This document shows positions 24,501 through 45,128 of a stretch of DNA of 57,086 nucleotides, one piece after another. This DNA comes from a virus. Lineage: Duplodnaviria; Caudoviricetes. The stretch covers positions 1 through 57,086 of IMG/VR virus record IMGVR_UViG_3300030328_001660. The stretch is one strand, 5' to 3'. Under the pieces are notes generated by a model, which did not search any database, was not told the DNA's origin, and saw nothing but the letters and a program-made list of their open reading frames with translations. A program made the translations under genes and the position numbers. Each line of letters opens with the position of its first letter. Within the stretch, counting starts at the first letter, position 1.

Positions 24501-27500
24501 CTGCTGGAGAAACAGGCTTAAGTGTAGTGCAAATGATCACGGCTGGTGAAGGGTTAAGTGTAGAAGGACGGGCAGTAACTGTTGTAGATTTAGATTACTA
24601 CGCAAGGGATGGGTCTGGTTGGGACGACGGAGACTTAGGAACAGCAACTTTTGCTTGGCTTGAGTCTTATATTAGCCCAGTTAAGAAACTAATTCGTATG
24701 ATTGATCAATCAGGGATTAATCCTGCTAGTCCTTTGACAGCAGTCAGAGGAGAACTTGTAGCATTAATAGCTGCAACAAGAGAAGGAGATGCAGCCTCGG
24801 GAATTGTTTTAAGATTGCTAGCACTTAAATTAGAAAATCCATTTTTAAGGTTAGACGGAGCAGGGCGAAAGGTAGAGATTTTCTTTAGTGAGAAAGATAG
24901 AAACGCAGAGAACTGGGGTGAATTACTACAAAGAGCAGACAGTTTAAGCACTAGTATTAAAACACAGATTTCAGACGAAGGGGTTCGCCTCAATAATGAT
25001 TTACACTATGCTGCTATGCAGTTTATCATGCTTGGAAAGACAGATATAAACAGCACGGATTTTGATACCTTAGTAGAGAACTTTAGAGAATTTTTAGGGA
25101 AGGACTTAGAGTTGACCGGGAGAAATGTAGAAGAAGAATTACAAGGAGCCTTAAGAGGGGCTGTTCTACATGGTAAAAGGGTTCCAATTACAAGCTCCGA
25201 TTCTATCTTTGCACAGGATTGGGATGAAGGTGACTTCGATTTAATGGCTGATTTTGCTTCTAACTACACAGCAGAAACACCTATTGAAAGATTGCCAGAA
25301 CAATTCAGGCCCCTATTTAAGGGACCCATATTGCAAATCGATAACCTAGTTGCAGACGGACGAATTACAAGACAAGAAGCTGTAACTATAAAGGCTATGC
25401 TATATAGAGCTTACTCTTTAAATCCAGAAATCATTCTTGGATTAACATTTGAGTCTTTGACAGAATCCATTAAGGGAGGAGCTGAAGCAGAACGAGCTGG
25501 GGATCAGTTTACAATTAGAATAGGCTCTAACTTTAGATCAGTTGCTAAGGACAATCCCCTTACAGCGATTGAAATATTTGCTCACGAAATTGCACATATC
25601 GCAAGGTTAAAATTTATTGCAGATAATTCCAACGAGTTTAACGAGCTAATGGGCCTTTATCAAAGCAAAGAAGGAAAGGTAGTACTAAAAAAAGCTGTAC
25701 TAGCTTGGCACGGGGGTGTATGGACTAAGGAAGCAAGAACAGAGTTTGAAAAATATATAGATGACCCTACTGGAGAAGAATTTATTGCTGGGTTTACGTC
25801 TTTATACTTACTTGCAGATGTAGCTCCAGTAATTAGAGACCTAAACAAAAAAGAATTAACAATCTTTGGAAAAACAGTAGCTGCTGTAAAGAGAATCTTT
25901 AGTTATATTTCTACTACTATGGGTAGGTTACAGATTGCTTTCCATACAGAAGACCCAGAGTTTAATAAGGCTATAAGAAGAATGTCTTTGAATGTATTTG
26001 GTTATGACTCAGGTACGGATGGGCATAGAAGCCAGTTTGATAGTACTGCCGTATCAGATGCTAGATTTGGTTGGGATGCAAAGCATAAGGGAAGTGTCTT
26101 ACCAAAGGTAGATGTTGAAAAGGATTTAGAAATACTAAGGCTTAATCAGAGGTACGTTGAACTGAAAGAAAGCGAAAGTAGAACAAGTGACGAAGAAACA
26201 GAATTAAATAACATTATAAATACTATGACTGAAGATCCTTATGCAAGTAGCGCGACAGGATTAACTTCGCATGGAGGAGAAGGCGGTACATTTACTAGAT
26301 GGGAATACATCACTACTTTAGACACAGTAAAAGAAAAATACGCTCCTCAGGCTAAGACTAGATCTGAATTAGAAGAGCCTAGTAGAAATCCAACGGGATC
26401 GGGAATTATTGATTTTGGTATGTTGATGGCTGAGGGTACATCCCAAGAAAAAGCAGCAGCTTTTGTTTACCTAAACGAAGCACTACTAAATACTTACGGA
26501 GAACCAGTTAGTAGAGGGCTAGGAGCAGTGGCAAACAAAATGCTTTCTAAAGGGGCAAGAGATAAGGTTATTGCAGCTTTAATTGGCAACACAGGACATG
26601 AATCAACATGGAACTCTAACTTCTTGATTCCCATAATGCTAACTACTCTCATTGATGATAACATCGCTACAGTTTCAGGATCGTTTACTAATCCAAGAGG
26701 AACTCCTTCTGTTAGAAAAATCCTAGGAGAACTAGAAAACTTTTCGGGTCAAATGAGAAGTAATAAGACAACAATAGTTAAACTGATACAAAACAAAATG
26801 ACATCCTTGTGGAAAGGAGAAGGGGTCGCTGGAAAAAAAGCTAACTTGATTTTAGAAACATTAAATATACAAGTTATTGAAAGCGTTTCACAAAGAAATG
26901 AAACTGAAGGAAAATACGAATTTGATTTATCAGAAAAAGCCATTGGTGTTGCTTTAGACGAAGACGTTAAAAAAGAAATAGCTGAACAGTTGCATGAGAT
27001 GTCTGAAGTATTTGTACAGATGGCTTTAAGAAATGTAACAAACGGTAAGGCTATTGGAGAATTTGGAGAAGGATTTACTAGCGTAGTTCCTTATAGACTA
27101 GGAACATCGCTGGATATTGAAAACATTTCCGGTGAAGCAGTCTTTGTAGATACAATGAAAGGTCTTATTTCCCAAAGACTTTTAACAAAACTAGACGAAA
27201 GTGGAATGGTTGAAGGAACTATTTTACTAGCAAACGGAACACTACCTCACTTAACAAATGACAACCAAGCTTTTAATGACCTTAAAAAACTTAAAGATAA
27301 CTTCCCATCAATATATGGATTCCTTTTAGAAAGTGCTGTAGACCAATTGGGAGGAGATAGAGATAGAGAGTTAAGGGTAAGATCTTTAGATAACAGACTA
27401 CAGAGTAAAGAATTCGATGCTTTAATTAAAATACGACATTCTTCTCTAAAGTTAATGAATCAACTAACTAAAGGTAATATTACTTTACATACTTTATTTA

Positions 27501-29887
27501 AAGATTCAGGAACTAGAAGAGAACGACAACGATTTGAAACTGAATACAAGCATATGGTTAGTGCAGCCAAAGAAAGCAGCGACAATGTAGCCAATAGATT
27601 AGAAGGGTTAACCGTTAAGAGCTACGAGGTTTCTCCCAATATAAAGGCAAGATCAACTGTTAAAGCAGGAAGAATTGCAAAATCTTTAGGAGTACCTAGA
27701 GATGCCATTACACATATATTTAGAAACTTCTTAGAACGGTCTGCGGTAGGAGCATACTACCCTAACGATAACTTTGCACTTCCAGAAGTAAATGAAACTT
27801 TGCAAGCTAATGAGCAAATGAAAAAATACTTTGTCGTAGATATTACAAGTTTGTCTGAAAACGCAAGGCACGGTCTATATAACGAAACTGCCGAAAAACT
27901 TATGATGAGAGAATTTGGAGCACACGCTACTGTTTCGCAAGTTTTAGATCTAGTAGAGTCTGTAAATACATCTTCATATGGTATTCTAGACGCAGAAGGA
28001 AATAGTTCTAGGGAGCAGACTGAAGCAATTAAGACAAGTGTAGAGGTCTTAAGAAATAAACATGACACTATTAGAAAGATAAGAAACACTAACGAACTTA
28101 AATCTACCAATATACTTGACAGTGCTGTTCCAGAGTATGGTAACGCAATTACTCGAATATCATTTGGTGGCAACTTGTTTATGGCAACCACTATTGTAGA
28201 AAATGGATTTGCTGCACTAGACGAATTACTTGGAAGAGGGAACATCACTGGTTTTGTAAGAAGTGCCTTTGCACCATTCAGTGCTATTACAAACAGAAAG
28301 GAAAGGGCTAGAGTTCTAAAGGACCACGCCTACCTTATTGATTCCATGACCCAAGGATTTTTACCTGAATTTGAAAAACCCTTTGGAGGAAGAGAAGACT
28401 CTGGGCCATTGAAATTCCTTAAAGGGTGGGGATCACAACAGATGCGATTAGCTAAGTGGCAGTTAAAAAACATTTCTGCTGCCCGTGCTGTTAACCTAAG
28501 ATCCTACATCCAATCTACACTGGAGCTAGATAAGAAGGGGAATCGACCTCTTATTCGTTTGGCTGAAATTTTAGAAAACCCCAGTGACTTTAGTGAGGTT
28601 AGTTTTAACAGGGAAATAAGTCAGTTACCAATGGATAAACAAGAGGCCGCATTAAAGGAGGCTCTTCGAGTAGCGGGCATTAGTAGTTACGCAAATCTTG
28701 GAATTATTACCTACCTTATGAAAGCAGGACTTCTTCGGACTGATAAGCTAAACATGCTTTTAGAAATGATGCCAGAAAACGGACGGTACAGTCCCTTTGA
28801 AATGAGTCACGAACTGTTCTCTAGTCACTCAGAAACTACAGATACTAAAGACTACAACGATAAGCTAGACATAATTACGGGTCTAAAAGAAGCTGAAAGA
28901 TCCTACATCGAAGAGGCTATCCTAGCTCCAAATGCTTTTGATACTCAAACTCAAGAACTAGGAACAGCCGGAGCATTGTTTGAGATCTATCGAAGATATC
29001 CAGTTCTTTTTGTTTCTCAACAGCTTATTAGAAAGTCAAGTAGGGCTAGTCCCATGAGGGCAGGAATGGGTCTAGCTAGTCTCCTCCTTCTAGATATCAT
29101 GTATATGGTAGCTTTGCAGCTAGCTGCGGGTGTAACAATGGACGAGATTATTGAAGAGTTTGAACAAAACGGATTTGCTAAAACAACAAAACTGATAGCC
29201 AGAACACCACTAATGGGACGTTATTTAGCAATGATTGCTCCGATAGCATCTTTAGGAGCTAAAGCTATTAGCGAGGGAAAAATGTTCGGTGCATTTGACT
29301 TGCAAAGAGAACTAGCAGCAAATTCAGGGTTTATTCCTTTAGCTGCTTTAGGACAAGGTTTAGGGGCTGGCATTACCGGAATACAAACTACAGGGGCTTT
29401 GATGGGCTTAAACGACATGCCAGTAGGTCAAGACATCTTAAACGCAACAAGAGTTATTCCGGGAGCAGACGCAGCTTTAAGACTTAGCGTATACTCTCTG
29501 GCCGGAGACGGAATTGAGAGAAAGGATAGGAGATCTTCCAGTAGAAGTACTAGATCAGGAGGAGTTGGAACTAATCAGGTAAGGAATGTTCACTACGGAA
29601 TGAGGCAAGACGAGGCACTAACCACTTGGGAGTACTATGCCCGTGACATGTATAAGGAAGTATTAGGAGAAGGTGTTGTCCCACAAGCAATTCAAGAATA
29701 CCACTCACAGCTTCAGCTTATGAATAGCTTAGAAAACACAATGGCCCCGCCCGCCGCACAAACACCCGCGCCGCCCGAACCCGCGCAGCCGGAGATCACT
29801 ACCTCTATTTCCAAACCCGAGAATATCGTAGAAGCAATCATAGACAGAAAGCCTGAGAAGGCACCGGAGGGTTTACTGGACTCATAG
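15593..29887 (+). CDS. Giant (4764 aa) internal virion protein with a single-subunit RNA-polymerase-like domain and a zincin HExxH motif (candidate virion RNAP / polyvalent protein)
   Basis: Motif A-like 'SDRVASG' (nt 21296) then 'ELDFY'. Motif B 'RGVFKVPILRRIYGG' (R-x3-K-x7-YG, nt 21638-21679). 'FAHEIAH...EEFIAG' (nt 25583). Gly/Ala hydrophobic segments near both ends. The ORF is certain; function is inferred. Confidence 0.6.
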   Translation: MTSQNLNAWATSDLPFYFRDNEEQNQGIREWSEFTEGFKKLSEPSIVGGRTPDISDSWSIDLETGELVRGVYDITTAMTHGSYSSYYGGMFEDNQARSKYSARMQLGAYKHDLYKGTALEFSEKDKKLLNHYASKSAWNLSRLGDPFRDEQEEAGVDLWDVPVFTNFNETPDNIMGRDAPEGWDPQQALEVLKLKDPQMYSVYLNTLGGRENVDDLLSETKNPYDFFYTLTNEMQQIAYMRTQMEWWKTASASEVVTEYVYNFVVEGIANDPDFAASMGISLGISAGTAGVGAIPSFIVAAAAKVLKTGINFAKFLKWTARLQNRMNQLQRYLPENLGPTLVNKIPQVKSFAQHGKFAQFSVNRLGDVGEGLITGGLAEIGNQYRQLDAGTLDSFSVTRVINESLIEAAFSPAVNPAIGGLYKGIGALGSLGSNQIAVPLANALLGENSVKGISNFVGKIGRTANPQALAERLELIEINTEIRAELEALTLEGTDIETGVEEDTDPTSPTGVISAVIASLFDETGMSKAEFLTSVKEILTDFREQADNPTDARRPKEGKEQEVVLAELAQELVNRNQEVILERNDGNKQVFANILGWTKQHITLAKQAAKKGMSYKDYVNQIIERGEEFNLVPNDIRKAVVEKLGEKFKDATTEERLEVAKEILQERIQEQKKAITEFNQRTDEGEAEADARDEDIDGIDPDPADPAPADPEPKPVDPEKRKGDDDPKDPGLEGGEGGPPARKRSEDPLVRREELKRKLEKQKRELEALKKKLEDRLKSDPDPKIKEKVEKVRSLVLSVEKQLETVTVDLNQMLADHAIDNAELKPLVNTLIDLRDRLHKISEDLKVDQEDDKGVIWSYFRAKRFEALLTKLNRLYIEEGEGGNVKSADISPELRQTLEDIKKELKDDNSKTADRMKQYINGVLAGTEKQMTPKTISQYLVRGGQVIKSHMERLEKTDLYKENSALVKEFNKTLRDYKRVIANIQRGETLNDIQKFFAIQLQQTGARAQRKETEVFEAKEKLFNDMIGDKEAEGETVTVNELLPVLHQFSEWRQNKEAVVEENPEKGEKEYTIEEAKEIFGKEAAAVKQKIKTLSIGKLQNLRAGGRYSYIRGDYEHNYNDSDVLGTSYDPEYVLERSNEDGKELDPETVDDTAEMIVEPEGLDDMKQADLNKFIDDVMGGEGGKGGKNKDKVARIRAWIANKNAEVKPKRTGPAYLPSPTVVYETLDAADGSSLFEDSFDVRNAEAREVGFEDYFHAVNSYNLYVIGIHKNKENFAKAAKGIGRKEIKEAWDARSKLSEKQRDAAKAQKINLVKQMKKELRTEDIVFTRSLDKDVEAWIQFEAALDMLATKADPTKGIAAWRINQAMPAYLRDYVGLKPYVVFGRENVLGKSHSALMPSDVVDVDMASATDRQVVQHTLRYRPEELLNIARAWKERGVAKIDGWQKQELANVLDTLEAQAMDESNPNSAANLYYTIAFIERLESASELVNRELFKMRQEKRDGGWIMEVDGDTGFPIKFTKDESTWIGDARGHIRDRINSLIERRQTRSLRNIAEKFGLTLEEQRNEFHFPTYVITDAEGNISDNVADVIIESMRTELEGLHEGQLSLTKLGNGEYGYGSSKNVGYAVVDFLSDKEMPSIQSLTAITDKDGKVIPAQADEDTEIKGQPTNVRLPIEGEVNHAMPIPAMKLAALVSNYKARERMRFILGKEKFTPKEREAYKAWVEAKWSDIKSELKDPDPTGEQVPFAVIPQIVGNRLHEQVMKRSEVKAFIMELLLDVPRNAEGFIHDQVTRRRGSRLMFNEGMEEGIVQVVDRDGNIVDRDIKNLDKDQGLMVDLSHGDHILVPLGRIGEILAIEAMGPMFKGLTSVAVEEVMKLRDKREADGTGTSINDFLSNDNWSDRVASGVFEMKLMSLANDPNATIEVDGKKMTAEEIMNGILDGTFKRKEKTELDFYMRGAITAGRNNTDTSTQIGKIFELIKKRDIKTMDDIVALEELGKTDEDAAKDSQEIAKLRGVFKVPILRRIYGGGQKNFDEEFAEGGKGYDAMKESGIEPSTENIAALKKILFSKIGVSASKSYLIDVALGVDEKTKKLVHSYLRIEQERDKPLLEAWKNLMDMDNKTLSKELENSITHIDLLDKKLRQLYRLDKSTMTFEEWKKVKGYDERFEAAKKFLTEKHEAGDAIHPGTDNYAEFKRMVSGVGGKLTAESIGYLRALNILNSQEYRINAERIKNAAELLGLKDFDITDYLGFEAHAVYQVMLPSGNSGRTYNTRNMGLDTLGISLERVARVSQYTHEGITYESFSDFLESGAAPTDKAVLTQLFEDFLAQDSDNADALGAYDLADPFLRDQRDAGKTDEELEQIVEDLMIKQEMLLWSSYDRPPSSVFPDYTVEDSDVGLLGNILREWYSHSEGRHESLRDEMRREMDHWNREGENSKFLALKNKSGGLVNKKVVDASNGAYRYTPYHVSENNPTSVMLHTAGQRGPLAMRPKYKESQYHDVGFFGLQKLHIQERLERLLGPLHTIRRNQRELSDEEVMVGGTNIGGFSPWNAAELPQVIPTLPANMAAEVGTPAGVRAAQLYYETHMWATERGLQEQLEADPENFARFYIIREIERTRQDIHRRVREDDVIADSDVTAHRNAWVSGLHDVVRYSRDIKNPEPRRKLKMFPEGEQFAAVNPIADDLTYYENLTSVLSEDNPEGILLRRSILDGEFKMGQAPDFNLVIDLDEGAGEMNLFEFSDLTEDAWAVQNADFNKFLAAQLFTEAIGNALKNYKDGKYAKYAMRPDDWETEIGEGLTTAEAIAERQEILQMAREYVAALPSYTLEVGIEEVLYDDAKGRGKKTNKYRLAFKRPSGEGQAQKGVYGAAVGFGMTFMTSQKISATSGKFLLGEGEALKMFSILENAQTMEGINLSNWLNKGLGIKVAANGQVVRAVPLHERVADALGYSARPIRDAALTNSESISRASAGETGLSVVQMITAGEGLSVEGRAVTVVDLDYYARDGSGWDDGDLGTATFAWLESYISPVKKLIRMIDQSGINPASPLTAVRGELVALIAATREGDAASGIVLRLLALKLENPFLRLDGAGRKVEIFFSEKDRNAENWGELLQRADSLSTSIKTQISDEGVRLNNDLHYAAMQFIMLGKTDINSTDFDTLVENFREFLGKDLELTGRNVEEELQGALRGAVLHGKRVPITSSDSIFAQDWDEGDFDLMADFASNYTAETPIERLPEQFRPLFKGPILQIDNLVADGRITRQEAVTIKAMLYRAYSLNPEIILGLTFESLTESIKGGAEAERAGDQFTIRIGSNFRSVAKDNPLTAIEIFAHEIAHIARLKFIADNSNEFNELMGLYQSKEGKVVLKKAVLAWHGGVWTKEARTEFEKYIDDPTGEEFIAGFTSLYLLADVAPVIRDLNKKELTIFGKTVAAVKRIFSYISTTMGRLQIAFHTEDPEFNKAIRRMSLNVFGYDSGTDGHRSQFDSTAVSDARFGWDAKHKGSVLPKVDVEKDLEILRLNQRYVELKESESRTSDEETELNNIINTMTEDPYASSATGLTSHGGEGGTFTRWEYITTLDTVKEKYAPQAKTRSELEEPSRNPTGSGIIDFGMLMAEGTSQEKAAAFVYLNEALLNTYGEPVSRGLGAVANKMLSKGARDKVIAALIGNTGHESTWNSNFLIPIMLTTLIDDNIATVSGSFTNPRGTPSVRKILGELENFSGQMRSNKTTIVKLIQNKMTSLWKGEGVAGKKANLILETLNIQVIESVSQRNETEGKYEFDLSEKAIGVALDEDVKKEIAEQLHEMSEVFVQMALRNVTNGKAIGEFGEGFTSVVPYRLGTSLDIENISGEAVFVDTMKGLISQRLLTKLDESGMVEGTILLANGTLPHLTNDNQAFNDLKKLKDNFPSIYGFLLESAVDQLGGDRDRELRVRSLDNRLQSKEFDALIKIRHSSLKLMNQLTKGNITLHTLFKDSGTRRERQRFETEYKHMVSAAKESSDNVANRLEGLTVKSYEVSPNIKARSTVKAGRIAKSLGVPRDAITHIFRNFLERSAVGAYYPNDNFALPEVNETLQANEQMKKYFVVDITSLSENARHGLYNETAEKLMMREFGAHATVSQVLDLVESVNTSSYGILDAEGNSSREQTEAIKTSVEVLRNKHDTIRKIRNTNELKSTNILDSAVPEYGNAITRISFGGNLFMATTIVENGFAALDELLGRGNITGFVRSAFAPFSAITNRKERARVLKDHAYLIDSMTQGFLPEFEKPFGGREDSGPLKFLKGWGSQQMRLAKWQLKNISAARAVNLRSYIQSTLELDKKGNRPLIRLAEILENPSDFSEVSFNREISQLPMDKQEAALKEALRVAGISSYANLGIITYLMKAGLLRTDKLNMLLEMMPENGRYSPFEMSHELFSSHSETTDTKDYNDKLDIITGLKEAERSYIEEAILAPNAFDTQTQELGTAGALFEIYRRYPVLFVSQQLIRKSSRASPMRAGMGLASLLLLDIMYMVALQLAAGVTMDEIIEEFEQNGFAKTTKLIARTPLMGRYLAMIAPIASLGAKAISEGKMFGAFDLQRELAANSGFIPLAALGQGLGAGITGIQTTGALMGLNDMPVGQDILNATRVIPGADAALRLSVYSLAGDGIERKDRRSSSRSTRSGGVGTNQVRNVHYGMRQDEALTTWEYYARDMYKEVLGEGVVPQAIQEYHSQLQLMNSLENTMAPPAAQTPAPPEPAQPEITTSISKPENIVEAIIDRKPEKAPEGLLDS

Positions 29888-30779: not shown

Positions 30780-30873
30780 AATCGACTAGGGGGTCGAAAA
30801 TTTATCTGGGGGCATGTACAGTAAATGGGAATCCTGTTTTCCCCCTTAACCCCTTGTTCTTGAAAGGAACAAA

Positions 30874-31212
30874 ATGAGTATTCTTATCTCAATCGTCTGG
30901 TCAATCTTTGTCATCGGAACCTTTGCCTTTGGACTGGCATGCCTCACGATCAACTTCTGGAACCGGCAGAGGGAAGAGCCGGGGGACATGAAGCAGGTCA
31001 TCTGCCAGAAGGAGTTGCCGAACGGGCTGATCGTCTGGACCAGAGAATGGAGGAACATGAACTCACCGGAGTTCGATGAGGTGTTCACGGAGCTTGACAG
31101 CAACCACGAAAACCCCACCTACATCGTACATCACAACCAAGGCAGACACGCCAACATCAAGGTACTCAACAATGCATACTCTCGACCCGAGCTTCCCTGC
31201 AAGCCTGAGTGA
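30874..31212 (+). CDS. Hypothetical membrane protein, first gene of GC-rich early region
   Basis: GAAAGGA RBS, N-terminal TM helix, GC3-rich codons. Confidence 0.7.
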   Translation: MSILISIVWSIFVIGTFAFGLACLTINFWNRQREEPGDMKQVICQKELPNGLIVWTREWRNMNSPEFDEVFTELDSNHENPTYIVHHNQGRHANIKVLNNAYSRPELPCKPE

Positions 31213-31319
31213 CACACACACCGCCTCAGCTCCCTTCACTGGGGGCATGAGGCATTCCGCAGGACTAACTTCGTCAACGTGACGAACTAACCCTGCTTAC
31301 TCTAATGGAGGGTATCCTT

Positions 31320-31709
31320 ATGGATGCTACCATTACCGTACATCGGCGTAGCATTGGTACGCCGATTGAGTTCAGGACGAACGTCCTGTTCGCGTCTTCT
31401 TTCGAGAAGGCACTTCAGGATGGCAACGGCTCGGAGCTGGAGCAGATGATCGACAAGATCAAGAAGCTTCACGACTACGTGCCGGAGACCGAAGACAGCT
31501 TCGTCTCGGAACCTCATGTTTTCAACACGATTCGTGCTGACGGACATCGATGGTACTGTGTCGCTCGTACCTGCGTCACGGCTCAGGAGTTTGAGAGTCT
31601 CAAGAGGAATCGTCTGGAAATCATGTGGGTTCCCGAACCCTACCAGACCCTCACCGACTGGACCTTGGACATCAAGGAAGCGTCTAGGGATATCAAGCTG
31701 TTCGTCTGA
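31320..31709 (+). CDS. Hypothetical early protein
   Basis: GGAGG RBS before ATG 31320 (track start 31305). Strongly GC3-biased codons. Flanked by hairpins. Confidence 0.7.
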   Translation: MDATITVHRRSIGTPIEFRTNVLFASSFEKALQDGNGSELEQMIDKIKKLHDYVPETEDSFVSEPHVFNTIRADGHRWYCVARTCVTAQEFESLKRNRLEIMWVPEPYQTLTDWTLDIKEASRDIKLFV

Positions 31710-31723
31710 ACTCACACGGAACC

Positions 31724-31916
31724 CCTCACTGTTCCCGAAAGGGAATGGTGAGGATTAGGAGCGGCTAGCCTCAAGGACGAGGTTAACCCGCAAAGAGATA
31801 CGTACTCCTCTACGCAAGGATGTGTAGTGTGGTGGAGTGAGTGTGATTCTCCCGGCCTAGTTGTATTGTTGGGCGGGAGCTAGCCTTACTGTTCCTTAAC
31901 AGGAGTAGTGAGGATT
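31724..31916 (+). repeat. Two related 13-bp hairpins (processing sites or terminators)
   Basis: CCTCACTGTTCCC-GAAA-GGGAATGGTGAGG-ATT (31724) and CCTTACTGTTCCT-TAAC-AGGAGTAGTGAGG-ATT (31884). Confidence 0.7.
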
Positions 31917-31983
31917 GGGTCTAGCGATGTGCTAGGCTCGGTCACTAATGAGTTGCCTCTTAGAGGCAGAAAGGTTCTTCAAA

Positions 31984-33807
31984 ATGAAGATCCAACTCAG
32001 TAACGGCCAGAAGGATGCAATCCGTGCAAAGACGGATTCCATTCTCCGGTCACGCTTGCGGGGATGGCTCCGCAGGTGGGGAACGTCAGAAACGGCGGTC
32101 CAACGGATGATGCAGGAAATGATCGTAGGATTGTGGATGACCTTCCACAAGGATCTCCCGAATGATCTGGTCCCCTTCAAGAAGAAGGGTGTTCAGGTCG
32201 GAGACATGACCGAGATCAGTGGTCTGCAACTGATGTCCATTCAGGCTTTCAACGTCCTTGACGACAAGCTTGCGTGGGTTGAGGCCAACAAGCATCGTTG
32301 GATTCCGGAGAAGCGTGTCATCTGGCACGCGGAACCCCCGAAGCTCGATGGGGTTTACACCCCGCGAGTTGCACGGAGAGTCGATCTCGAGGTCGGCTCC
32401 ATGAGGTCTGAGTTCATGCAGACCGTCACCAACACCCGGTATGTGGTGAACCAAGATACCCTTCGGGACATCTTGGCCTACCGGGAATCGCTGTCCAGAG
32501 AGAAGGCGAACAGCATCATGTACGAACGTGAGGCTGATGTCTTCGGTGATCTGGAGTTCAACAGCACGGGTGACATGGCTCTCTTCGAGTCTCTCTCTGG
32601 GGTCTCTGACCCCGGCTGCATCGCCTTGGATTCCCAAGACGAGGCAGGGCGTTTCTACGCCGAGTTCGGTCCCATGTACAGTCGCTTTCTCAGGGCTGCG
32701 ATGGGTCACGAATGGGAGGCACTCACCGAAGAGGGTGCGTTCATGTTTCGGAAGTACTTGGCCGACAAGTACGGAAAGAAGGATGACCTCGAGTTGGATA
32801 ACTGGTCCAAGAGCATCGATGAGAACGGGTTGCAAGTTCTCGTCAACCACCACAAGAAGGGTGCGGACATGCTGTCGGATGCCCGTGGTTGGAAGGAGTT
32901 CCGCCAGACCGGAGGCACTTGCCTCCCGGCGAAGCGGGACTACATCGCCCAAGGACTGGGAATCATCGCTGCCTTGCAGGGAGCGTCTTCGCATCGCCAA
33001 TTGGTGGACACGGCTCACCCCGACCACCGATCGGCACATGCCATCTTCTCGGATGACCTGAGAGCTATGTTCAGGTCGTTGCGTGGCTACACCGCCGAGG
33101 AACTCAAGCCCATCTCCAAGAACTGCTTGCTGCCCGGCCCCTATGGGGGCGGAAAGCTCGCCATTGCGGCGAAGCAGTCCGACATGGAATGGGATGCCGT
33201 TGCCGGTGATTGGAACTACGGCGAAGATGGTGATCGCGTTCCGGACATCCATCCCTTGTTGGAGAGCCTTCTCCCTCAGGGTGACGTTCGGGCGAAGATG
33301 GAAGCTCTTGTCAAAGAGAGCAGCAAGATGGCGAGACTCATGCACAAGCGGTTCCCCTTCCTGAAGCCCTTTCAGGAGAGGGTCGTCGCTAATTGGCACT
33401 CACACTCGGCACGGGGCGAATGTCCCATCTTCGAGTACAAGTCTGGGTATCGCCTTCCGGCGGCACCCATTCGGATGAACAAGAAGTGGACCACTCACAT
33501 CAGGGGCTACAAGGTCCTTGCTGATGGTTCCAAGATTCGTCCGGGTGTCACCGTCTTCAAGCATGATCTTAACGAAGACGGGACGGACTGGATGGCGAAG
33601 AGTGCGTTCAGGCGTGACTCTGATATCGTCTGCCACACCGGCTTGATGCTGGCAGAAGCAGGCGTGAAGAATCAGGATCACGTTCACGACATGCACCGAG
33701 TGGGATGGAACCACGTCACCCTCCTCGACCGGGTTTCGGTTGAGGCGTACAACGTGGTCTGTGGGACCGACCTTCCCGCAGATGCCAAGCTTCTCGCATC
33801 TGACTAA
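31984..33807 (+). CDS. Divergent, short single-subunit (T7/Pol A fold) RNA-polymerase-like protein
   Basis: Motifs in the correct order: DEAGRFY (nt 32638), motif A 'DYIAQGLGIIAAL' (32938), motif B 'KPISKNCLLPGPYGG' (33106), 'AFRRDSDIV', motif C 'VHDMH' (33682). GAAAGG RBS before ATG 31984 (track start 31948). Confidence 0.75.
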   Translation: MKIQLSNGQKDAIRAKTDSILRSRLRGWLRRWGTSETAVQRMMQEMIVGLWMTFHKDLPNDLVPFKKKGVQVGDMTEISGLQLMSIQAFNVLDDKLAWVEANKHRWIPEKRVIWHAEPPKLDGVYTPRVARRVDLEVGSMRSEFMQTVTNTRYVVNQDTLRDILAYRESLSREKANSIMYEREADVFGDLEFNSTGDMALFESLSGVSDPGCIALDSQDEAGRFYAEFGPMYSRFLRAAMGHEWEALTEEGAFMFRKYLADKYGKKDDLELDNWSKSIDENGLQVLVNHHKKGADMLSDARGWKEFRQTGGTCLPAKRDYIAQGLGIIAALQGASSHRQLVDTAHPDHRSAHAIFSDDLRAMFRSLRGYTAEELKPISKNCLLPGPYGGGKLAIAAKQSDMEWDAVAGDWNYGEDGDRVPDIHPLLESLLPQGDVRAKMEALVKESSKMARLMHKRFPFLKPFQERVVANWHSHSARGECPIFEYKSGYRLPAAPIRMNKKWTTHIRGYKVLADGSKIRPGVTVFKHDLNEDGTDWMAKSAFRRDSDIVCHTGLMLAEAGVKNQDHVHDMHRVGWNHVTLLDRVSVEAYNVVCGTDLPADAKLLASD

Positions 33808-33829
33808 TCCTTCTGGCTAACCAACCGAT

Positions 33830-33862
33830 CTCCCCTGCCCTAACGGGTGGGGGAGTTTCTTT
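33830..33862 (+). terminator. Intrinsic terminator after the second RNAP gene
   Basis: CTCCCCTGCCC-TAAC-GGGTGGGGGAG followed by TTTCTTT. Confidence 0.85.
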
Positions 33863-34195
33863 CACAACGGGGGATACGCTAAATCGATTGCCTTAGCAAT
33901 CAGAGTGTGTATTATCTTTGTCCCGGTCCGGGTACGTCCCCGCGTATGTATGGTGGTGGTGATCCGGACGACCCCTGCGCTCGGCCCCTCAAAGCCGGGG
34001 CCGAGAAACTCTAAGCAGTGAACGCCGAGCACTAGGCGTTAAAAGTGGGTGTAATAGTAGGTTGTATCCACATACCTAGGTTTGTCCCTAGGTTTTGAGA
34101 TTTTTATGGGTGTGTGGGTGGGTAGTCACATACCTGACTGATAACTAGGCTTGTACACCTTAGGTCAGTCCTTAGGTCTACCCCGGAGATGATCA

Positions 34196-34450
34196 ATGAC
34201 CACCATTATCATCAAGAAGAAGAAGGCCCGCAAGGGTCCACCTGCGGACGATGCTCCTGTTACTGAGAAGGTTGCATACTGGGACGAGCGTTTCAGGCAG
34301 TGCTATGGCACTGAAGTTGCAGTCTCAGAAGGCACAGCCAAGGAGCAGCAGCGTTGGCCGGACCACAAGCGAGCCGAGATCGACCAGATGTGCAAGGAAT
34401 TGGACATCCAACACCACGATGAGGATGGAAACGTACTCACGCTGGCGTAG
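34196..34450 (+). CDS. Hypothetical protein
   Basis: GGAG RBS, 84 aa, Lys-rich N-terminus, GC3-biased codons. Confidence 0.65.
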   Translation: MTTIIIKKKKARKGPPADDAPVTEKVAYWDERFRQCYGTEVAVSEGTAKEQQRWPDHKRAEIDQMCKELDIQHHDEDGNVLTLA

Positions 34451-34560
34451 GGTAACCTGCGTCATCGAGGGTCTGCTCTTTTCTCACCAAGCCCTGAGAG
34501 GCTCTCACGTAGCTTCTCAGGGCATTCGCTCTTTCTCTCGGGCCTCGGTATACCTATGGT

Positions 34561-34815
34561 ATGCCGGGGCCTTTACACAAGCACAGGGAGCCACACATGT
34601 GGGAATTCTTTTGTAATGCAGAAGGCGAAGTCTGGGTGGCATACTGTCACGATACTTACACAGCACACGTTTTGCTGGATGAGCGTCGTGGGTTGTATGA
34701 CCCTGACCCAAAGATCCCTCAGCATGTCATCGAGGCATGGAGGACTTGCCGTGAACTCGGCTACTCCTCGGGTCTGCAAACGGAGAACTGCGGAGGTGCG
34801 TTCATCAATGATTGA
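34561..34815 (+). CDS. Hypothetical protein
   Basis: 84-aa ORF whose stop overlaps the start of the sigma-like gene. The true start may be the internal Met after GGGAG. Confidence 0.5.
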   Translation: MPGPLHKHREPHMWEFFCNAEGEVWVAYCHDTYTAHVLLDERRGLYDPDPKIPQHVIEAWRTCRELGYSSGLQTENCGGAFIND

Positions 34816-35293
34816 AGAGAACGATCTCCGGATTGCGAGGTGGAGATTATCCCGTAAGGGTTGTCCTCAGGATTTACTGGAGGACTATATCAACACTGCC
34901 GTTGTTTGTTTGTTAGAACAAGAGGAAGTAATTGAGGGTAAGCTAGGCATAGGTAATTGGTTGGGTCGTGTGGCCTTTTACAAATGGGTAGATGACCGCA
35001 AGAAACTATCCTTCAGGAAAACCAGAGGTTGGCCGAAGGACAATGAGGGAGAAGACTCAGAATTTCAGGGGGATCACATCCCTCCAGATCAGTTAGTGTT
35101 AGACAGGGAAGAAGCTGACCTTCAGGAGAAACATGTGATGAATCTCATCCATGAAGGGACGGTCATGCAGCAAGACGTAGCACATCTTGTGGCACGCTCT
35201 CCTCTGAAGAAGGGCAGAAAGGTTGCAGCAATAGTTAGAGGTGTCTCTTACCAAGCTACTGCTGTCGCCCTGAATTCCTACCGCAAAAGATAA
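34808..35293 (+). CDS. ECF (sigma-70 group 4)-like sigma factor
   Basis: GGAGGT RBS. Region 2-like 'DLLEDYINTAVVCLL...NWLGRVAFYKWVDDRKK' and region 4-like 'QQDVAHLV...KVAAIVRGVSYQATAVALNSYRKR'. 161 aa from ATG 34808. Confidence 0.6.
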   Translation: MIEENDLRIARWRLSRKGCPQDLLEDYINTAVVCLLEQEEVIEGKLGIGNWLGRVAFYKWVDDRKKLSFRKTRGWPKDNEGEDSEFQGDHIPPDQLVLDREEADLQEKHVMNLIHEGTVMQQDVAHLVARSPLKKGRKVAAIVRGVSYQATAVALNSYRKR

Positions 35294-35929
35294 CAAATAT
35301 TTCCACTCTAGATCAAGGGTGGAAGGGGTAGCCTAACAAGACTTTATCTTAGGTCTAAGGCATCACTCAAAGGGGTAGCACCTTGTACCAGAGCCAATCG
35401 GTGAGGTACAGCCCGACGCAGGGCTACGAGTGGGTACGAAGTAGAGTATCAACGAACTTGATAAGATCTCGAAAAGTTCTGGGTAACACAAGAAGTCCCA
35501 GCCCCACACTAAACACGCGGCTAGGTCATCACCGGAGACTATGGGTCACGCCATAGTTCTCCTATGGTGGTGATCTCAGCTAGAACGCACCATCACCTGA
35601 GCATGTGGTGTAATAAACTGCTTCACTTGTCTATCGCATTGCTCTGGACAAATGACTCGTTTGGGCGAGCCTAAATAGTTCTTAAGCCCAAAGCGGGCTA
35701 CAGCTTAGACAATACTCTGGTTGTAGCCGTGAAATCCTTCTAGTGTTAGTAGCGTACCCGTGAAAGCACCCAAAGGTGTACATGAAACATACTGGGAAGT
35801 ATCGGTTCAAGTCCGATCATCGGAGATATCCGACACAGATCCTAGGTAGGGCCTGAGAAGGGCCTGTAGTGTAATCGGCAGCACGCCCGTATGTTCTTGT
35901 GCTTAATAACCCAACATGAAAGGTAAGTA
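35294..35929 (+). ncRNA. Candidate large structured non-coding RNA region
   Basis: No + strand ORF of 60 aa or more over ~640 nt. Continuous stem-loops, an H-type pseudoknot and tRNA-like arms. Confidence 0.45.
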
Positions 35930-36373
35930 ATGGGAAACATCTTTGATGATCTCAATGCAGACGATCAGTTTATTGAAGCTGATGTAAGAGATGAGGTTAC
36001 TAACGAACCCATCAATACTGACATTGACTTTTGTAGTTTGGTTGTTAGTGAATACGCCAATAAAGTATCTCTCCATATTGAAAACGATATGGGTATACCT
36101 GATCCAGTTGGCTTGTTCCTTCCAGAAAACAAGGTTGATATCCAAGAAGCGATCAATCAAACGCTTAAGGATCACCCCGGCATTTGGATTAGGTGGGAAC
36201 ACGGCTCGTTTAAGGGTGTTCACTTCCAAATCAGACGAGGCAATGGGGTAAAGGAACGATTCTTTAGGACTGACACTAAGGGTGCATTTGCTCGGCGTAA
36301 AATCTACGCCCAGAGAAATCCTGATAGTGTTGTGAGTTTCACTATGTTCCCTGAAGAATCACAAACATTTTGA
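35930..36373 (+). CDS. Hypothetical protein
   Basis: GAAAGGT RBS, 147 aa. Confidence 0.7.
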   Translation: MGNIFDDLNADDQFIEADVRDEVTNEPINTDIDFCSLVVSEYANKVSLHIENDMGIPDPVGLFLPENKVDIQEAINQTLKDHPGIWIRWEHGSFKGVHFQIRRGNGVKERFFRTDTKGAFARRKIYAQRNPDSVVSFTMFPEESQTF

Positions 36374-36944: not shown

Positions 36945-37079
36945 GTCAGTATTACAAGAAGCTAGCAAAAGTAGCTAAGGAAAAGAACTGGTCTCATCGT
37001 AAGCTCGGTGAGTTTATTAAAAAGAATAAGGGCAAACCGCCCTCAATTGCACTAAAGAATTTAGAAAAGGAATCTTAAT

Positions 37080-42399: not shown

Positions 42400-42687
42400 A
42401 TGATGCAGAAACACGATCAATTAGGTGGTGGTAATTGGAATGCCCATAAGCCACGGGTATGGAAAAAATTAAGAGAGAAGCATAGGAAACATGCAGCATC
42501 AGGCCGGTCCGGTCCATCAATGCCTGAAGGGCATATACCGCACGGTGGTGCAGGTAAAGGTGACATGAATAGAGTTGTTAACCAAACCAAATATTCTTTA
42601 GGTTTAGATCTTATCCGAATCGCCAAAGAAAAAGGTAAGGATTCTAAGGAATATAAAGAAGCCCTTGAGGCTTGGAGGAACGCTTGA
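42400..42687 (+). CDS. Hypothetical protein
   Basis: GGAG RBS, 'GAGKGDMNR' motif. Confidence 0.6.
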   Translation: MMQKHDQLGGGNWNAHKPRVWKKLREKHRKHAASGRSGPSMPEGHIPHGGAGKGDMNRVVNQTKYSLGLDLIRIAKEKGKDSKEYKEALEAWRNA

Positions 42688-45128
42688 TCTGGCATACGCT
42701 TTCTGAAGAAGAAAAAGATATTCGAGTTAATTCTCAATTAGCTTTTGAAGAAAAGATGTTAGACTACGGTAGAGAAAAATACTGGCGAGAATATAATCGG
42801 TCCCCAGATGAGGGCATACCGGAACAAGAGCTGATAGATACTTCCGTTAAAGAACTAACTGAACTCTATCAAGACTGGATAGACAAAGTATGTAGCTCAC
42901 CTCGCTGTCCCAAGTGGATCTATCCTCTAATAGAATTAGGTGCTAAGAAAATGGCTGACGTTACGTTACGTTCTGTCATTAGGAATTGGTTTTCTAGTTC
43001 TTATTGGGGGTACAACTGGCAATCAAATCAAATAGTTCCTCCATTAGCCCAGAGTGTCTCTAGTCAGATAGCTCAAGACGCATTGGACATTATAAATTTT
43101 CAACGGGCTAAAGATAACAACAGAGAAGACTGGCTAAAGCAATCTAAGTTTGTAAAGAACTGGACCACAAAAAGATGCAAGGCTTTTTCGCAGAAGCTAG
43201 AAGAAAATACTGAGATATCTTTAAAAAACAAACGTGACTTCGGTCACAATATGTTGCGCATAGCTGCCTCGTCTAATGTAATTCGGCTAGTGACGCACAA
43301 AACAAAGAGAGGAAACCTTTACCGAAACTTATTAACGGTAGAGTTCCATCCCTCTGTGTTAAAAGAACTGCACAACAGACATGAGTTTCTTCAGAACAGT
43401 GCTCTAATCTATAGACCTATGATCTCAAGGCCAGTAAGCCATACAAAAGAATACTCAGGCGGGTATATTACTTCGTCAATTAGAAAACCTGTAGTTCAAA
43501 GATACAAATCAAATTTCTTTAGCGATCATACAATTAAACAAAAGTTTTCAGAGCCTTCCAAGGTTGTGCTTGATGGTTTAAATACCATGATGGATACAGA
43601 GTGGTGCGTCAATGAGAAAACTTATGATGTAATGAAGAATTTGTTTGAGAATAATACAGGGCTAGCTAACTTACCTTACTATTCTTTTGAAGAGTTCATG
43701 TATAACGAGCCGTACCCTAAAGACGGAACTAAAGAAGAGAAGGCTATATGGTGTCAGAAGAAAGAAGAAGCTTGGGGTAAGTGGTATAAACAAGAACAAT
43801 CAAGAGGTAGAATGCTGGTTAGATTACAGCTAGCAAAAGATTTAATAGAGTGTGGTTGGTTCTACCATGTCTATACTTGTGACTTCCGTGGCCGTGCTTA
43901 TACAACCTGCGAATTGCTTTCTCCCCAGTCATCTGATACAGACAGAGGATTGATAAAGTTAAAGAACAAAAGAAAGTTAACAGAACGAGGTAGGTACTGG
44001 CAGAAGATTAACTTAGCTAACCTTTTTGATCAAGACAAAATTACTTTTGAAGAAAGAGTGCAGTGGGTAGAGGATAACTGGGATATGTTTGTGCGTATTT
44101 CAAAGGACCCTTATAGTAATAAGGAGTGGATTGATGAAGCCCCAAAGAAAAACAAATCTTTTCAGAGACTATCAGCAATCTTCGACATTACTAGGACTGA
44201 TGGCTATAGTGATATACCTATTAACGTCGATGGTAAATGCAATGGCAATCAGCATTGGTCTGCTATTATGGGAGATAGTAGCATTGCCAAATTAACAGGA
44301 GTCATCCCCTCAGATACTCCGCTTGATTTGTATCAGCATGTTGCGGATAGCACTACCACTCACTGTAAGAAGTTTATAGAAGAAAACTCTTGGTACAAAA
44401 AGTTCCTTAAGTATTGGACAGGAAGAATAGAACGCAAGGTAACTAAGCGTAGTACAATGTGCGAGCCTTATGGCATAACCTTCTACGGAATACAAAGATA
44501 TATAAAAGAAGAAGGACACCTTGACTGGGTGCCAAGAGAACAACGAGGCGGTGCTATAGTTGAGCTTGCCCGTGCTATAAAAGCAAGCCTAGATATATCC
44601 TTGGGAGAACCAAATAAAGGCAAACAATATCTTAAGGATATAGTAGAGGAAGCAAACAAGGTTAATGTACACGTTACTTGGACGACCCCAAGCGGATTCA
44701 AGGTAGTACATTACTATAACAAGCAACAAAAGAAAAGATCTTTAGCTGCTTTGTTTAATAAAAAAGAGTTAGTCTTTTACGTAAGAACAAAAGATGTTAA
44801 CCCTAGAGAAGCTTTGCAAGCTATCTCTCCTAATTTTATACACAGTTTAGATGCTGCTCATATGTTTTTAACTATCGACATGATCAGTAAGTTGTATGGG
44901 ATTATAGATTTGTGCATGATACACGACTCTTACGGTTGTCATGCTAACGATATGGATATTATGAGAGACTGTCTTCGTCATACATTTGTAGATATTCACG
45001 CAGAGAATCAACTGGAAAACTTTAAGATCCAACTTGAAAATCAGTTGGGAATTAGCTTGCCTTCTGTTCCAGAACGTGGTAAACTAGATATAGGTTCAGT
45101 CTTAAGTTCAGAATACTTTTTTGCGTGA
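42672..45128 (+). CDS. T7-type single-subunit DNA-directed RNA polymerase (canonical)
   Basis: 'DFRGRAY', motif A 'DGKCNGNQHWSA', motif B 'RKVTKRSTMCEPYG', 'PNFIHSLDAAH', motif C 'IHDSYG'. 818 aa, TTG start. Confidence 0.96.
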   Translation: MEERLIWHTLSEEEKDIRVNSQLAFEEKMLDYGREKYWREYNRSPDEGIPEQELIDTSVKELTELYQDWIDKVCSSPRCPKWIYPLIELGAKKMADVTLRSVIRNWFSSSYWGYNWQSNQIVPPLAQSVSSQIAQDALDIINFQRAKDNNREDWLKQSKFVKNWTTKRCKAFSQKLEENTEISLKNKRDFGHNMLRIAASSNVIRLVTHKTKRGNLYRNLLTVEFHPSVLKELHNRHEFLQNSALIYRPMISRPVSHTKEYSGGYITSSIRKPVVQRYKSNFFSDHTIKQKFSEPSKVVLDGLNTMMDTEWCVNEKTYDVMKNLFENNTGLANLPYYSFEEFMYNEPYPKDGTKEEKAIWCQKKEEAWGKWYKQEQSRGRMLVRLQLAKDLIECGWFYHVYTCDFRGRAYTTCELLSPQSSDTDRGLIKLKNKRKLTERGRYWQKINLANLFDQDKITFEERVQWVEDNWDMFVRISKDPYSNKEWIDEAPKKNKSFQRLSAIFDITRTDGYSDIPINVDGKCNGNQHWSAIMGDSSIAKLTGVIPSDTPLDLYQHVADSTTTHCKKFIEENSWYKKFLKYWTGRIERKVTKRSTMCEPYGITFYGIQRYIKEEGHLDWVPREQRGGAIVELARAIKASLDISLGEPNKGKQYLKDIVEEANKVNVHVTWTTPSGFKVVHYYNKQQKKRSLAALFNKKELVFYVRTKDVNPREALQAISPNFIHSLDAAHMFLTIDMISKLYGIIDLCMIHDSYGCHANDMDIMRDCLRHTFVDIHAENQLENFKIQLENQLGISLPSVPERGKLDIGSVLSSEYFFA

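Follow-up and report, generated by a model that had tools for sequence, protein, structure and literature searches.

A manA-class RNA, a predicted Pistol ribozyme and a permuted tRNA-like domain stand in a row in a gene-free region of a phage genome

In phage T7, RNase III hairpins between the early genes cut the polycistronic message and leave structured ends. To our knowledge, a biological role has still not been established either for manA RNAs, found in 2010, or for pistol self-cleaving ribozymes, found in 2015; the pistol class was reportedly described by Weinberg et al. in 2015. A third kind of RNA, YrlA, is presented in the relevant passages of Wang et al. (2018 preprint, 10.1101/312249) and Chen et al. 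(2014, PMC4201824) as a circularly permuted tRNA with a closed acceptor stem. The passages on its context in Chen et al. (2014, PMC4201824) place its gene at most about 4 kb from the Ro60/Rsr (TROVE) gene, on the same strand, and describe a GNCGAAN0-1G motif near its 5′ end as the presumed Rsr site. Here we describe a region without genes, positions 35294–35929, in a 57,086-bp IMG/VR virus record (IMGVR_UViG_3300030328_001660; estimated completeness 85%), which at its full length is referred to below as the window. The gene-free region holds several separately folded RNA modules in a row rather than one giant RNA: a divergent manA-class RNA (D1), two spacer hairpins, a Pistol ribozyme match, a short stem (S0) and a permuted tRNA-like domain (D3). 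In four divergent phage contigs, a manA-class RNA and a pistol ribozyme are thus conserved next to each other, a setting in which two orphan RNA classes can be tested, and the predicted pistol cut would create the 5′ end of a third element, a permuted tRNA mimic.

Separate RNA modules in the gene-free region

An earlier, sequence-only reading of this DNA had described the region as a gene-free, almost continuously base-paired RNA with a preference for the plus strand, and most of this description held up. The longest open reading frame (ORF) on either strand has 57 aa and a TTG start. Small conserved ORFs do not explain the region, as the alignments show 1-nt and 4-nt indels and paired substitutions. 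The plus strand of the whole region folds at −219.5 kcal/mol, compared to −185.2 ± 7.0 kcal/mol for 20 dinucleotide shuffles, none of which was as good (z −4.90), whereas the minus strand reached a z of only −1.60. By part, D1 (35300–35512) gave a z of −4.67 and the spacer (35513–35650) a z of −4.47, with none of 200 shuffles as good in either case. All stems that had been listed were recovered in place: the 5′ stem of TTCCACTCT (35301–35309) and AGGGTGGAA (35316–35324); the GTACC/GGTAC, AGCCC/GGGCT, TATCAA/TTGATA and CTGGG/CCCAG hairpins, all in the minimum-energy fold of 35300–35512; the long hairpin at ~35517–35588; GCTACAGC/GTTGTAGC, which is P3 of the pistol ribozyme; and TCGGA/TCCGA, which is hairpin H2 of the tRNA-like domain. 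The pairing of CGTTTGGGC with GCCCAAAGCG is also present, but it forms the pistol pseudoknot and not an ordinary stem. The region is non-coding, structured on the plus strand and covarying, and it is conserved in three more contigs of uncultured phages, where compensatory changes occur. At gathering thresholds, Rfam reported four tRNAs and one Pistol ribozyme in the whole window; a permissive search of 35100–36100 (E ≤ 10) added nothing credible, and GOLLD, ROOL or another large-RNA family was matched in neither search.

The homologous contigs were reached by different routes. L003, a metagenome contig, and an identical TARA contig (L002) were found with a profile of a 619-aa ORF family from the neighbourhood of the region. 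A degenerate pistol-core pattern gave 29 loci in viral contigs, two of which share sequence 3′ of the ribozyme with the window: L015, an 82-kb record rated complete, and L029, which is interrupted by its contig end inside D1. An order of RNA polymerase (RNAP)-like gene, small ORFs, RNA region and early genes is common to the window, L003 and L015. Flanking proteins used as single queries had no relatives among viral contigs; of the flanking-protein profiles, A3 found the L029 contig only and A1 found nothing in viral or genome contigs. A profile of the protein of a downstream early gene (A4) yielded 22 loci of related phages, and a D1 pattern scan 42 more. A joint pistol–D3 pattern also gave 61 loci in genome contigs, which were judged chance matches because none of the 61 matched the D1, D2+D3 or D3 profiles. 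No match was obtained by blastn in a cultured-phage collection, either with the region or with the RNA cluster of contig L039 described below.

The central module matches the Pistol model RF02679 (35655–35711) at 37.3 bits against a gathering score of 34.5, and its homologues score 39.3 (L003), 51.7 (L015) and 46.0 bits (L029), so that all four related contigs lie above the gathering score. The Rfam model alignment cuts P3 short; read directly, P3 is followed by the junction G35729–U35730 and then by the 3′ strand of P2, GAA(A). In a four-sequence count all 22 pairs could be drawn, those of the three stems as well as those of the pseudoknot, which links the P1 loop with the P2–P3 junction, and 98.9% of cells were paired. 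Compensatory changes affect 7 of the 9 pairs of P3, a covariation score that was reached by none of 500 shuffles, and controls slid by 1–3 columns gave 0–2 such pairs. P1, the pseudoknot and P2 are invariant in the four sequences and are therefore neither supported nor contradicted by covariation. The predicted cleavage junction has 2 nt in all four; L003 and L029 have AU there, the window and L015 GU. This fits the rule, given in the relevant passages of Harris et al. (2015, PMC4604425), that the junction dinucleotide varies and its length is strictly conserved.

Upstream of the ribozyme, D1 begins with hairpin P1 (35301–35324, loop GAUCA), followed by a closing helix, GGGG (35325–35328) with CCCC (~35504–35507), that encloses P2/P2a, a three-hairpin multibranch and a terminal hairpin with a GGGUAA loop. 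Used as a single nhmmer query, the window D1 found six other phage loci (E 1e-6 to 2.5e-11), five of which score 37.8–45.7 bits on the full Rfam manA model, below its gathering score of 55.2. Full-length D1 was found by nhmmer in L054, L056, L067, L069 and L086 and partial D1 in L058 and L081; at these extra loci manA was again the best Rfam family (25–46 bits), with no match at E ≤ 0.5 in L054. The stretches of L003 and L015 that are homologous to 35301–35510 are whole-model manA matches, at 31.3 and 37.8 bits respectively. Altogether, manA was the best Rfam family in nine related loci, at 21–46 bits. RNAalifold on seven D1 sequences (excluding L058, L039 and L003) drew 43 pairs, 17 of them compensatory; L003, which MAFFT placed out of register for D1 and D3, was left out of the pair counts of both. 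Read by eye, the closing helix takes six covarying forms in ten sequences (GGGG/CCCC, GUGG/CCAC, GCCG/CGGC, GACCG/CGGUC, GAGGG/CCCUC and GAUGG/CCAUC). D1 has the 5′ hairpin, the closing helix round P2 and multibranch and the 3′ hairpin with a GGUA-rich loop that make up the manA architecture, and its relatives align to model positions 1–192. Because its homologues match the manA model and its pairs covary, D1 is, as judged from sequence comparison, a genuine structured RNA with the manA architecture, although its score stays below the curated threshold. No pistol or D3 was found near D1 in L054, L056, L067, L069 or L086, and D1 is thus an independent module. In the window it lies ~420 nt, ribozyme included, from the next ORF (147 aa), and it stands ~240 nt upstream of a gene in L056 and ~210 nt upstream of one in L054.

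Two further observations concern these modules in other phages. In L054 (2745–2775) and L056 (3297–3330 and 3340–3375), the place of the window's pistol and D3 is occupied by a repeated motif, GCAGGG(A/G)UGCG(A/U)CUGCU..AAUCAACGCAUA, whose loop can pair with a downstream ACGCAU in an H-type pseudoknot and for which no Rfam match was reported. An unrelated 130-kb phage contig, L014, carries a pistol and, ~160 nt downstream, a stretch that the D1 (manA-like) profile matches with its 3′ part (13112–13377, minus strand; E 5e-5).

The stretch between D1 and the ribozyme varies from ~70 nt (L015, L029) to ~210 nt (L003), and its sequences cannot be aligned. In the window it holds a near-perfect hairpin of ~25 bp that is absent from the L003, L015 and L029 alignments and is possibly an RNase III-type processing or stability hairpin. 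It is followed by a small hairpin whose 21-nt core has an exact copy in L056 (2946–2966), upstream of D1. As this copy sits on the other side of D1, the modules have been shuffled between phages. Such an unconserved spacer speaks against both a single integrated fold and an allosteric link between D1 and the ribozyme. A riboswitch-controlled ribozyme, in which D1 would gate the pistol, was considered and is unlikely, given an intervening spacer conserved neither in length nor in sequence.

These results bear on the central proposal of the sequence-only reading, that the whole ~640 nt form one large noncoding RNA, a single folded unit of a new GOLLD- or ROOL-like family. Structure is indeed continuous along the region (whole-stretch z −4.9), the order D1–pistol–D3 is kept in the window, L003 and L015, and the minimum-energy fold draws some long-range pairs between modules. 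However, a self-cleaving ribozyme match lies in the middle of the supposed unit, D1 occurs standalone in at least five other phage contigs, the spacers differ in length and sequence, no conserved pairing between modules was seen, no GOLLD or ROOL match was obtained and the 3′ third is a permuted tRNA-like fold. We therefore consider a single large RNA improbable.

Table 1. Coordinates of the RNA modules and associated features in the window
Feature	Position	Strand	Basis or remark
D1, divergent manA-class RNA	35301–35510	+	Fold z −4.67, nhmmer relatives, covariation
Lineage-specific spacer with two hairpins	35513–35650	+	z −4.47
Long near-perfect hairpin, ~25 bp	35517–35588	+	Minimum-energy fold
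Small hairpin CCAUCACC-UGAGCAU-GUGGUG	35590–35612	+	Single-copy in window
Pistol self-cleaving ribozyme (RF02679)	35655–35734	+	Rfam score, pair count
Pistol P1	35656–35659/35666–35669	+	Four-sequence alignment
Pistol pseudoknot	35660–35665/35687–35692	+	Four-sequence alignment
Pistol P2	35679–35681/35731–35733	+	Four-sequence alignment
Pistol P3	35696–35704/35720–35728	+	Four-sequence alignment
Predicted cleavage site, between G and U, at the junction of the P3 and P2 3′ strands	35729–35730	+	Sequence and alignment
S0 stem, CCUU 35736–35739/AAGG 35773–35776, directly after P2 3′ strand	35736–35777	+	RNAalifold on four sequences, fold
D3, circularly permuted tRNA-like domain	35778–35902	+	Pair count, YrlA-model alignment
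D3 terminal stem, lower stem	35778–35781/35899–35902	+	Pair count
D3 terminal stem, 'anticodon-stem' S1	35786–35796/35886–35895	+	Pair count
D3 T-arm (5-bp stem, 7-nt loop UUCAAGU)	35801–35817	+	After 4-nt variable region
D3 hairpin H2	35820–35833	+	Joined to H3 by conserved strand GAUCCUAGGUAG
D3 hairpin H3	35850–35864	+	Joined to H2 by the same strand
D3 U8–A9 equivalents (UA)	35867–35868	+	tRNA equivalence
D3 D-arm (4-bp stem, loop AAUCGGCA)	35869–35884	+	Then G26 equivalent, 35885
Ribosome-binding site AAAGG and ATG (35930) of conserved 147-aa ORF	35918–35932	+	27 nt past D3 end

The permuted tRNA-like domain downstream of the ribozyme

S0 encloses two conserved unpaired blocks, AGUAGCGUA and CCGUGAAAG, and its pairs, read by eye, are CCUU/AAGG in the window and L015, CCUAUC/GGUAGG in L029 and CCUACC/GGUGGG in L003. 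The elements of D3, which follows, stand in the order expected of a tRNA that is opened at its anticodon loop and closed at its acceptor end. By eye, all four copies show a T-loop of the form UUCRANU, the G53–C61 closing pair and U8 followed by a purine, as well as a D-loop GG, a variable region of 4–5 nt and an equivalent of position 26. In the pair count for the window, L029 and L015, D3 has 28 pairs with 98.8% of cells paired, and 12 pairs are compensatory; none of 500 shuffles scored as high, and slid controls gave 0–3 compensatory pairs. L003, left out of this count because of its MAFFT register, shows the same helices built from other sequences when read by hand.

D3 also contains the permuted module of YrlA type, consisting of a terminal stem, a T stem-loop, a closed acceptor-like element (here two hairpins) and a D stem-loop. 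In a cmscan search of 241 nt, the L015 D3 was aligned to the YrlA model with an identical stem assignment, at 16.9 bits (E 0.45) against a gathering score of 69, and the window and L003 gave no match at E ≤ 10. A TROVE (PF05731) gene was present in none of six phage records, in a search that detected its positive controls, and a regular-expression search for GNCGAAN0-1G over the stretch between the predicted cleavage site and the following start codon found the motif in none of the four copies. D3 thus shares the topology of YrlA but does not qualify as a member: neither the TROVE gene nor the GNCGAA motif was found, and the score falls far short of 69 bits.

We searched 90 sources with a covariance model of D3 (R1). 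Full-length matches were obtained in L039–L042 (34.8 bits, E ~1e-5; 22 bits), L047 (22.3 bits) and L045 (22.0 bits), all of them loci from the early-gene profile, and ARAGORN called no tRNA at these positions. In L039, the D3-like fold comes immediately after a bona fide manA RNA (79 bits) and is itself followed by a mini tmRNA-type tRNA-like domain (1620–1701; 51 bits against a gathering score of 47), in which 14 nt replace the 306-nt body. This manA copy has no sequence-level match to D1 and occupies the same genomic place. In L045, the D3-like fold stands ahead of a weak manA match (21.3 bits). The arrangements in L039 and L045 reveal that manA-class RNAs and tRNA-shaped modules recur together, in varying order, in the early regions of this phage group.

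Contig L039 also has, like L040–L042, an ORF-free kilobase (1313–2290 in L039), with a second permuted tRNA-like fold at 2055–2180 and a T-arm-like hairpin near 2250.

A scan of viral contigs for a T-arm followed by a D-arm gave 80 loci from at least 117 stretches, in which R1 had at least 36 matches at E ≤ 1. When 13 of these matches were inspected (the full-length ones among the best 19), 11 overlapped tRNA genes called by ARAGORN, that is, tandem tRNAs. Since the model mostly matched tandem tRNA genes, weak R1 matches need a check for tRNA genes, and among the matches listed the scan provided no secure new member of D3. Three R1 matches do not overlap a called tRNA gene: L162 (4409–4501), L235 (1834–1960) and L237 (3290–3357, second half only). 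In these, a T-arm-like hairpin is followed by UA-GUGU...GCAC inside a terminal stem, and they may be additional permuted tRNA mimics from unrelated phages.

The affinity of the model for tandem tRNA genes raises the question of whether D3 is simply what is left of a decaying pair of adjacent tRNA genes (the 3′ half of the first and the 5′ half of the second) and has no function, which would leave only the pistol and D1 functional. The same phage has four tRNA genes 4 kb downstream of the RNA region (39.7–40.8 kb, by Rfam), and the folding energy of D3 is unremarkable. Yet compensatory changes keep S1 and the lower stem (5 of 14 pairs), precisely the helices that would join two different tRNAs, and L003 builds the same stem from different sequence. 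Furthermore, neither ARAGORN nor Rfam RF00005 called a tRNA in the region or its homologues (the T-arm alone aligns locally, at 16 bits), and the fold is kept although flanking proteins are only 34–63% identical between the phages. A remnant is accordingly a very improbable explanation of D3. A genuine permuted tRNA gene matured via a circle was also considered and rejected; D3 has no tRNA-type acceptor stem and no anticodon loop.

The early transcript and its genomic setting

All genes of the window lie on the plus strand. PHROGs identified a terminase, tail proteins, a T7-type RNAP (42672–45128, 818 aa), a primase/helicase, a family-A DNA polymerase and a ribonucleotide reductase. The RNAP is only ~26–27% identical to cultured Autographiviridae enzymes; from this and the set of genes, the source appears to be a deep-branching, uncultured marine T7-like lineage. 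The structural module of this ~57-kb T7-like genome includes a single ORF of 4764 aa (15593–29887, plus strand). The RNA region forms the right edge of a GC-rich island (30.85–35.9 kb; GC 0.51–0.58 compared to ~0.40 elsewhere) between the structural genes and the early/RNAP genes.

In T7-like genomes, the genome ends and early promoters lie between the structural and the early/RNAP modules. Compared with T7, the contig has its genes in a circularly permuted order, and the region occupies this very interval at the edge of the GC-rich island, as would suit an element acting at the DNA level, such as a genome end, packaging site, origin or promoter cluster, with incidental RNA structure. This is the explanation to which we give the least credence: folding is strand-asymmetric, G-U pairs and compensatory changes fit RNA helices, a curated ribozyme match lies inside, and neither a repeated promoter-like motif nor, in the promoter scan, any promoter was found within the region. 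A repeated promoter was specifically rejected, as CCTAGGT occurs 7 times compared to 6.4 expected and the 21-mer CCATCACC... is single-copy in the window.

The promoter and terminator scan detected neither a sigma-70-like promoter nor an intrinsic-terminator-like site within the RNA region. Outside it, a terminator-like hairpin follows the 619-aa gene (33830–33855), a promoter-like site lies at 33888–33915, and the next terminator-like site is at 36993–37012. Since no such site lies inside the region and 27 nt separate the end of D3 from the ATG at 35930, the RNA modules are most simply parts of one early transcript.

The gene immediately upstream of the RNA region is not the 245-aa ORF but one that encodes 161 aa (34808–35293, plus strand). 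Its 12 relatives, combined in a profile, match two extracytoplasmic function (ECF) sigma factors in PDB, namely CnrH (E 3.4e-4, full length) and SigL, and a similar ECF-sigma-like gene stands after D1 in L054 (2921–3526). A small ORF starting MWEFF (~34597–34815) is kept in L003. Downstream, homologues of the 147-aa ORF follow the RNA region in L003 and L029, and another gene takes this place in L015. Among 5.8 billion proteins searched, the 619-aa ORF (31948–33807, plus strand; 607 aa from its second Met) has no more than two relatives (63% and 34% identity), and it had no Pfam or PHROGs match. In the ESM Atlas it falls among single-subunit (T7-type) RNAPs (feature score 0.93; structure TM 0.66 to PF00940 clusters); because of this placement, the phage would own a second, very divergent mini-RNAP beside the 818-aa enzyme.

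The island (30850–35930) thus holds the RNAP-like gene, small ORFs, the ECF-sigma-like gene and the RNA region, a block that is syntenic in L003 and L015. The genome had been called tightly packed outside the RNA region, which is not so everywhere: two more ORF-poor intergenic stretches of the island, 31710–31947 and 33808–34195 (plus strand), fold with z-scores of −6.30 and −4.47 against shuffles. The first contains two near-identical 13-bp hairpins of the type CUCACUGUUCC...GGAAUGGUGAG, and inspection by eye gives a similar picture for the homologous stretches of L003.

The predicted cut, the tRNA-like 5′ end and known counterparts

Our preferred reading, which we regard as probable, is that D1, the hairpins, the Pistol, S0 and D3 are independent modules on the plus-strand early transcript, in which the ribozyme splits the message and leaves a tRNA-like 5′ leader. 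The pistol core would fold during transcription and cut between G35729 and U35730. The upstream RNA, comprising the ECF-sigma-like message, D1 and the ribozyme body, would keep a structured 3′ end with a 2′,3′-cyclic phosphate. The downstream RNA would begin with 5′-OH-UGAAAUCC..., the 3-bp P2 would dissociate, and the new 5′ end would fold as S0 plus an L-shaped tRNA mimic. This folded end could protect the message of the 147-aa gene from 5′-end-dependent decay, offer a binding site to a host factor that recognises tRNA elbows, or both. The ribozyme would in this way do, without host help, the job of the RNase III hairpins between the T7 early genes, and in related phages a tRNA-like RNase P site would stand in the equivalent place. 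The arrangement suggests that T7-type early transcripts can be processed by ribozymes in place of host RNase III or RNase P.

Several points weigh against this account. The protective role of the leader is one that we purely infer, and, because a different gene follows D3 in L015, no specific gene is tied to D3. The 3′ part is thermodynamically ordinary: 35730–35904 has a z of only −1.55, with 15 of 200 shuffles as good, so that its support is comparative and not thermodynamic, and in the single-sequence minimum-energy fold the strands of the D3 T-arm pair otherwise. The covariation of D3 rests on three sequences and hence on few independent events. On the D3 model the L003 copy scores only 14.1 bits (E 0.21) with filters off, the D3-like matches elsewhere are weak (22–35 bits, with E-values that are roughly calibrated), and the model is prone to match tandem tRNAs, as seen above. 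For D1, the window copy gives no Rfam manA match at E ≤ 10 in 35100–36100, and no member of its subgroup reaches 55.2 bits (relatives, 21.3–45.7). Finally, P2 of the pistol consists of only three Watson-Crick pairs and a G.A mismatch, invariant in the four sequences, and the activity of the predicted ribozyme could therefore be weak.

The main rival to a leader is a free, trans-acting small RNA made of D3, perhaps together with D1, with a 5′ end produced by the pistol and a 3′ end trimmed by a host nuclease. Once released, the mimic would titrate or recruit a host protein that binds tRNA, much as Rsr is tethered to effectors by YrlA; such a protein could be RNase P, a Ro-like protein, a modification enzyme or a defence nuclease directed at tRNA. 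Several features of D3 suit such an RNA, namely its elbow signatures of a tRNA, its YrlA topology and its long terminal stem, which resembles that of Y RNA. The head-to-tail row in L039, where manA, D3-like and further tRNA-like modules succeed one another without an intervening ORF, and the different gene after D3 in L015 suit it as well. Set against these are the lack of a TROVE/Ro gene in the six phage records and of the Rsr-site motif in the four copies, the absence of a terminator or second ribozyme that would mark a 3′ end, and the end of D3 only 27 nt before a start codon. On the whole, we think a free small RNA rather unlikely. A wider proposal builds on it, namely that marine T7-like phages carry a trans-acting early noncoding RNA toolkit of manA-class RNAs and Ro-independent permuted tRNA mimics, cut out of the early transcript by a built-in pistol or, in sister phages, by a tRNA-like RNase P site. 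The manA RNAs would then not be riboswitches for the next gene but partners of mimics aimed at a host tRNA-handling or RNA-repair/decay pathway, and the natural job of pistols would be 5′-end formation of such RNAs. This proposal is speculative, and we hold it to be rather doubtful.

Each module belongs to or resembles a known class. The arrangement of manA, pistol and permuted tRNA, or a Ro-independent YrlA-type mimic in T7-like phages, was met in no paper in a literature search of main texts.

Among described systems, the T7 RNase III hairpins resemble the region in being structured intergenic sites within an early polycistronic transcript of a T7-type phage; the difference is that here the RNA itself would cut, to give a 2′,3′-cyclic phosphate and a 5′-OH, and the hairpin at 35517–35588 may still be an RNase III site. 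The Theta (HDV-like) ribozymes next to phage tRNAs reported by Kienbeck et al. (2024, PMC10879173) are likewise small self-cleaving ribozymes beside a tRNA-shaped RNA with a presumed role in end formation. They are of another class, whereas the ribozyme of the window lies 5′ of a permuted mimic that has no anticodon and no free acceptor end, and for which no decoding role is therefore expected. With GOLLD and ROOL the region shares its length, its lack of genes, its high degree of structure and a phage that carries tRNA genes, but it is modular, matches no Rfam family of that kind and has a predicted internal cut instead of forming one large fold.

The closest counterparts are those of the individual modules. 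D1 has the 5′ hairpin, closing helix, P2, multibranch and GGGUAA-loop hairpin of manA (RF01745; relevant passages of Weinberg et al., 2010, PMC2864571) and shares its marine, viral source. It differs in scoring below the threshold, in belonging to T7-like podophages where known manA RNAs, as described there, belong to T4-like cyanophages, and in not standing directly before a metabolic gene, the way to the next ORF being taken up by a ribozyme and a tRNA mimic. The ribozyme has the P1, P1-loop pseudoknot, P2, P3 and two-nucleotide junction of Pistol (RF02679; Harris et al., 2015, PMC4604425), and a phage location, as is often the case for pistols. Its differences are the reduced P2, the long P3 (9–13 bp), a manA-class RNA as 5′ neighbour, and a 3′ product that is a conserved stem plus a permuted tRNA mimic and not bare message. 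D3, finally, shares with YrlA (RF02553), as portrayed in the passages cited at the outset, a terminal stem in place of the anticodon stem, followed by variable region, T-arm, closed acceptor side and D-arm, and it keeps U8, the D-loop GG and the T-loop UUCRA. Permuted tRNA mimics have so far been described only for Ro-associated bacterial Y RNAs, in contrast to D3, which is found in phages whose records hold no Ro/Rsr gene (0 of 6), which lacks the GNCGAA Rsr motif and reaches 16.9 of the required 69 bits. Its acceptor side consists of two hairpins and the conserved single strand GAUCCUAGGUAG instead of one stem-loop, and, unlike YrlA, it is joined to a ribozyme and to a messenger RNA.

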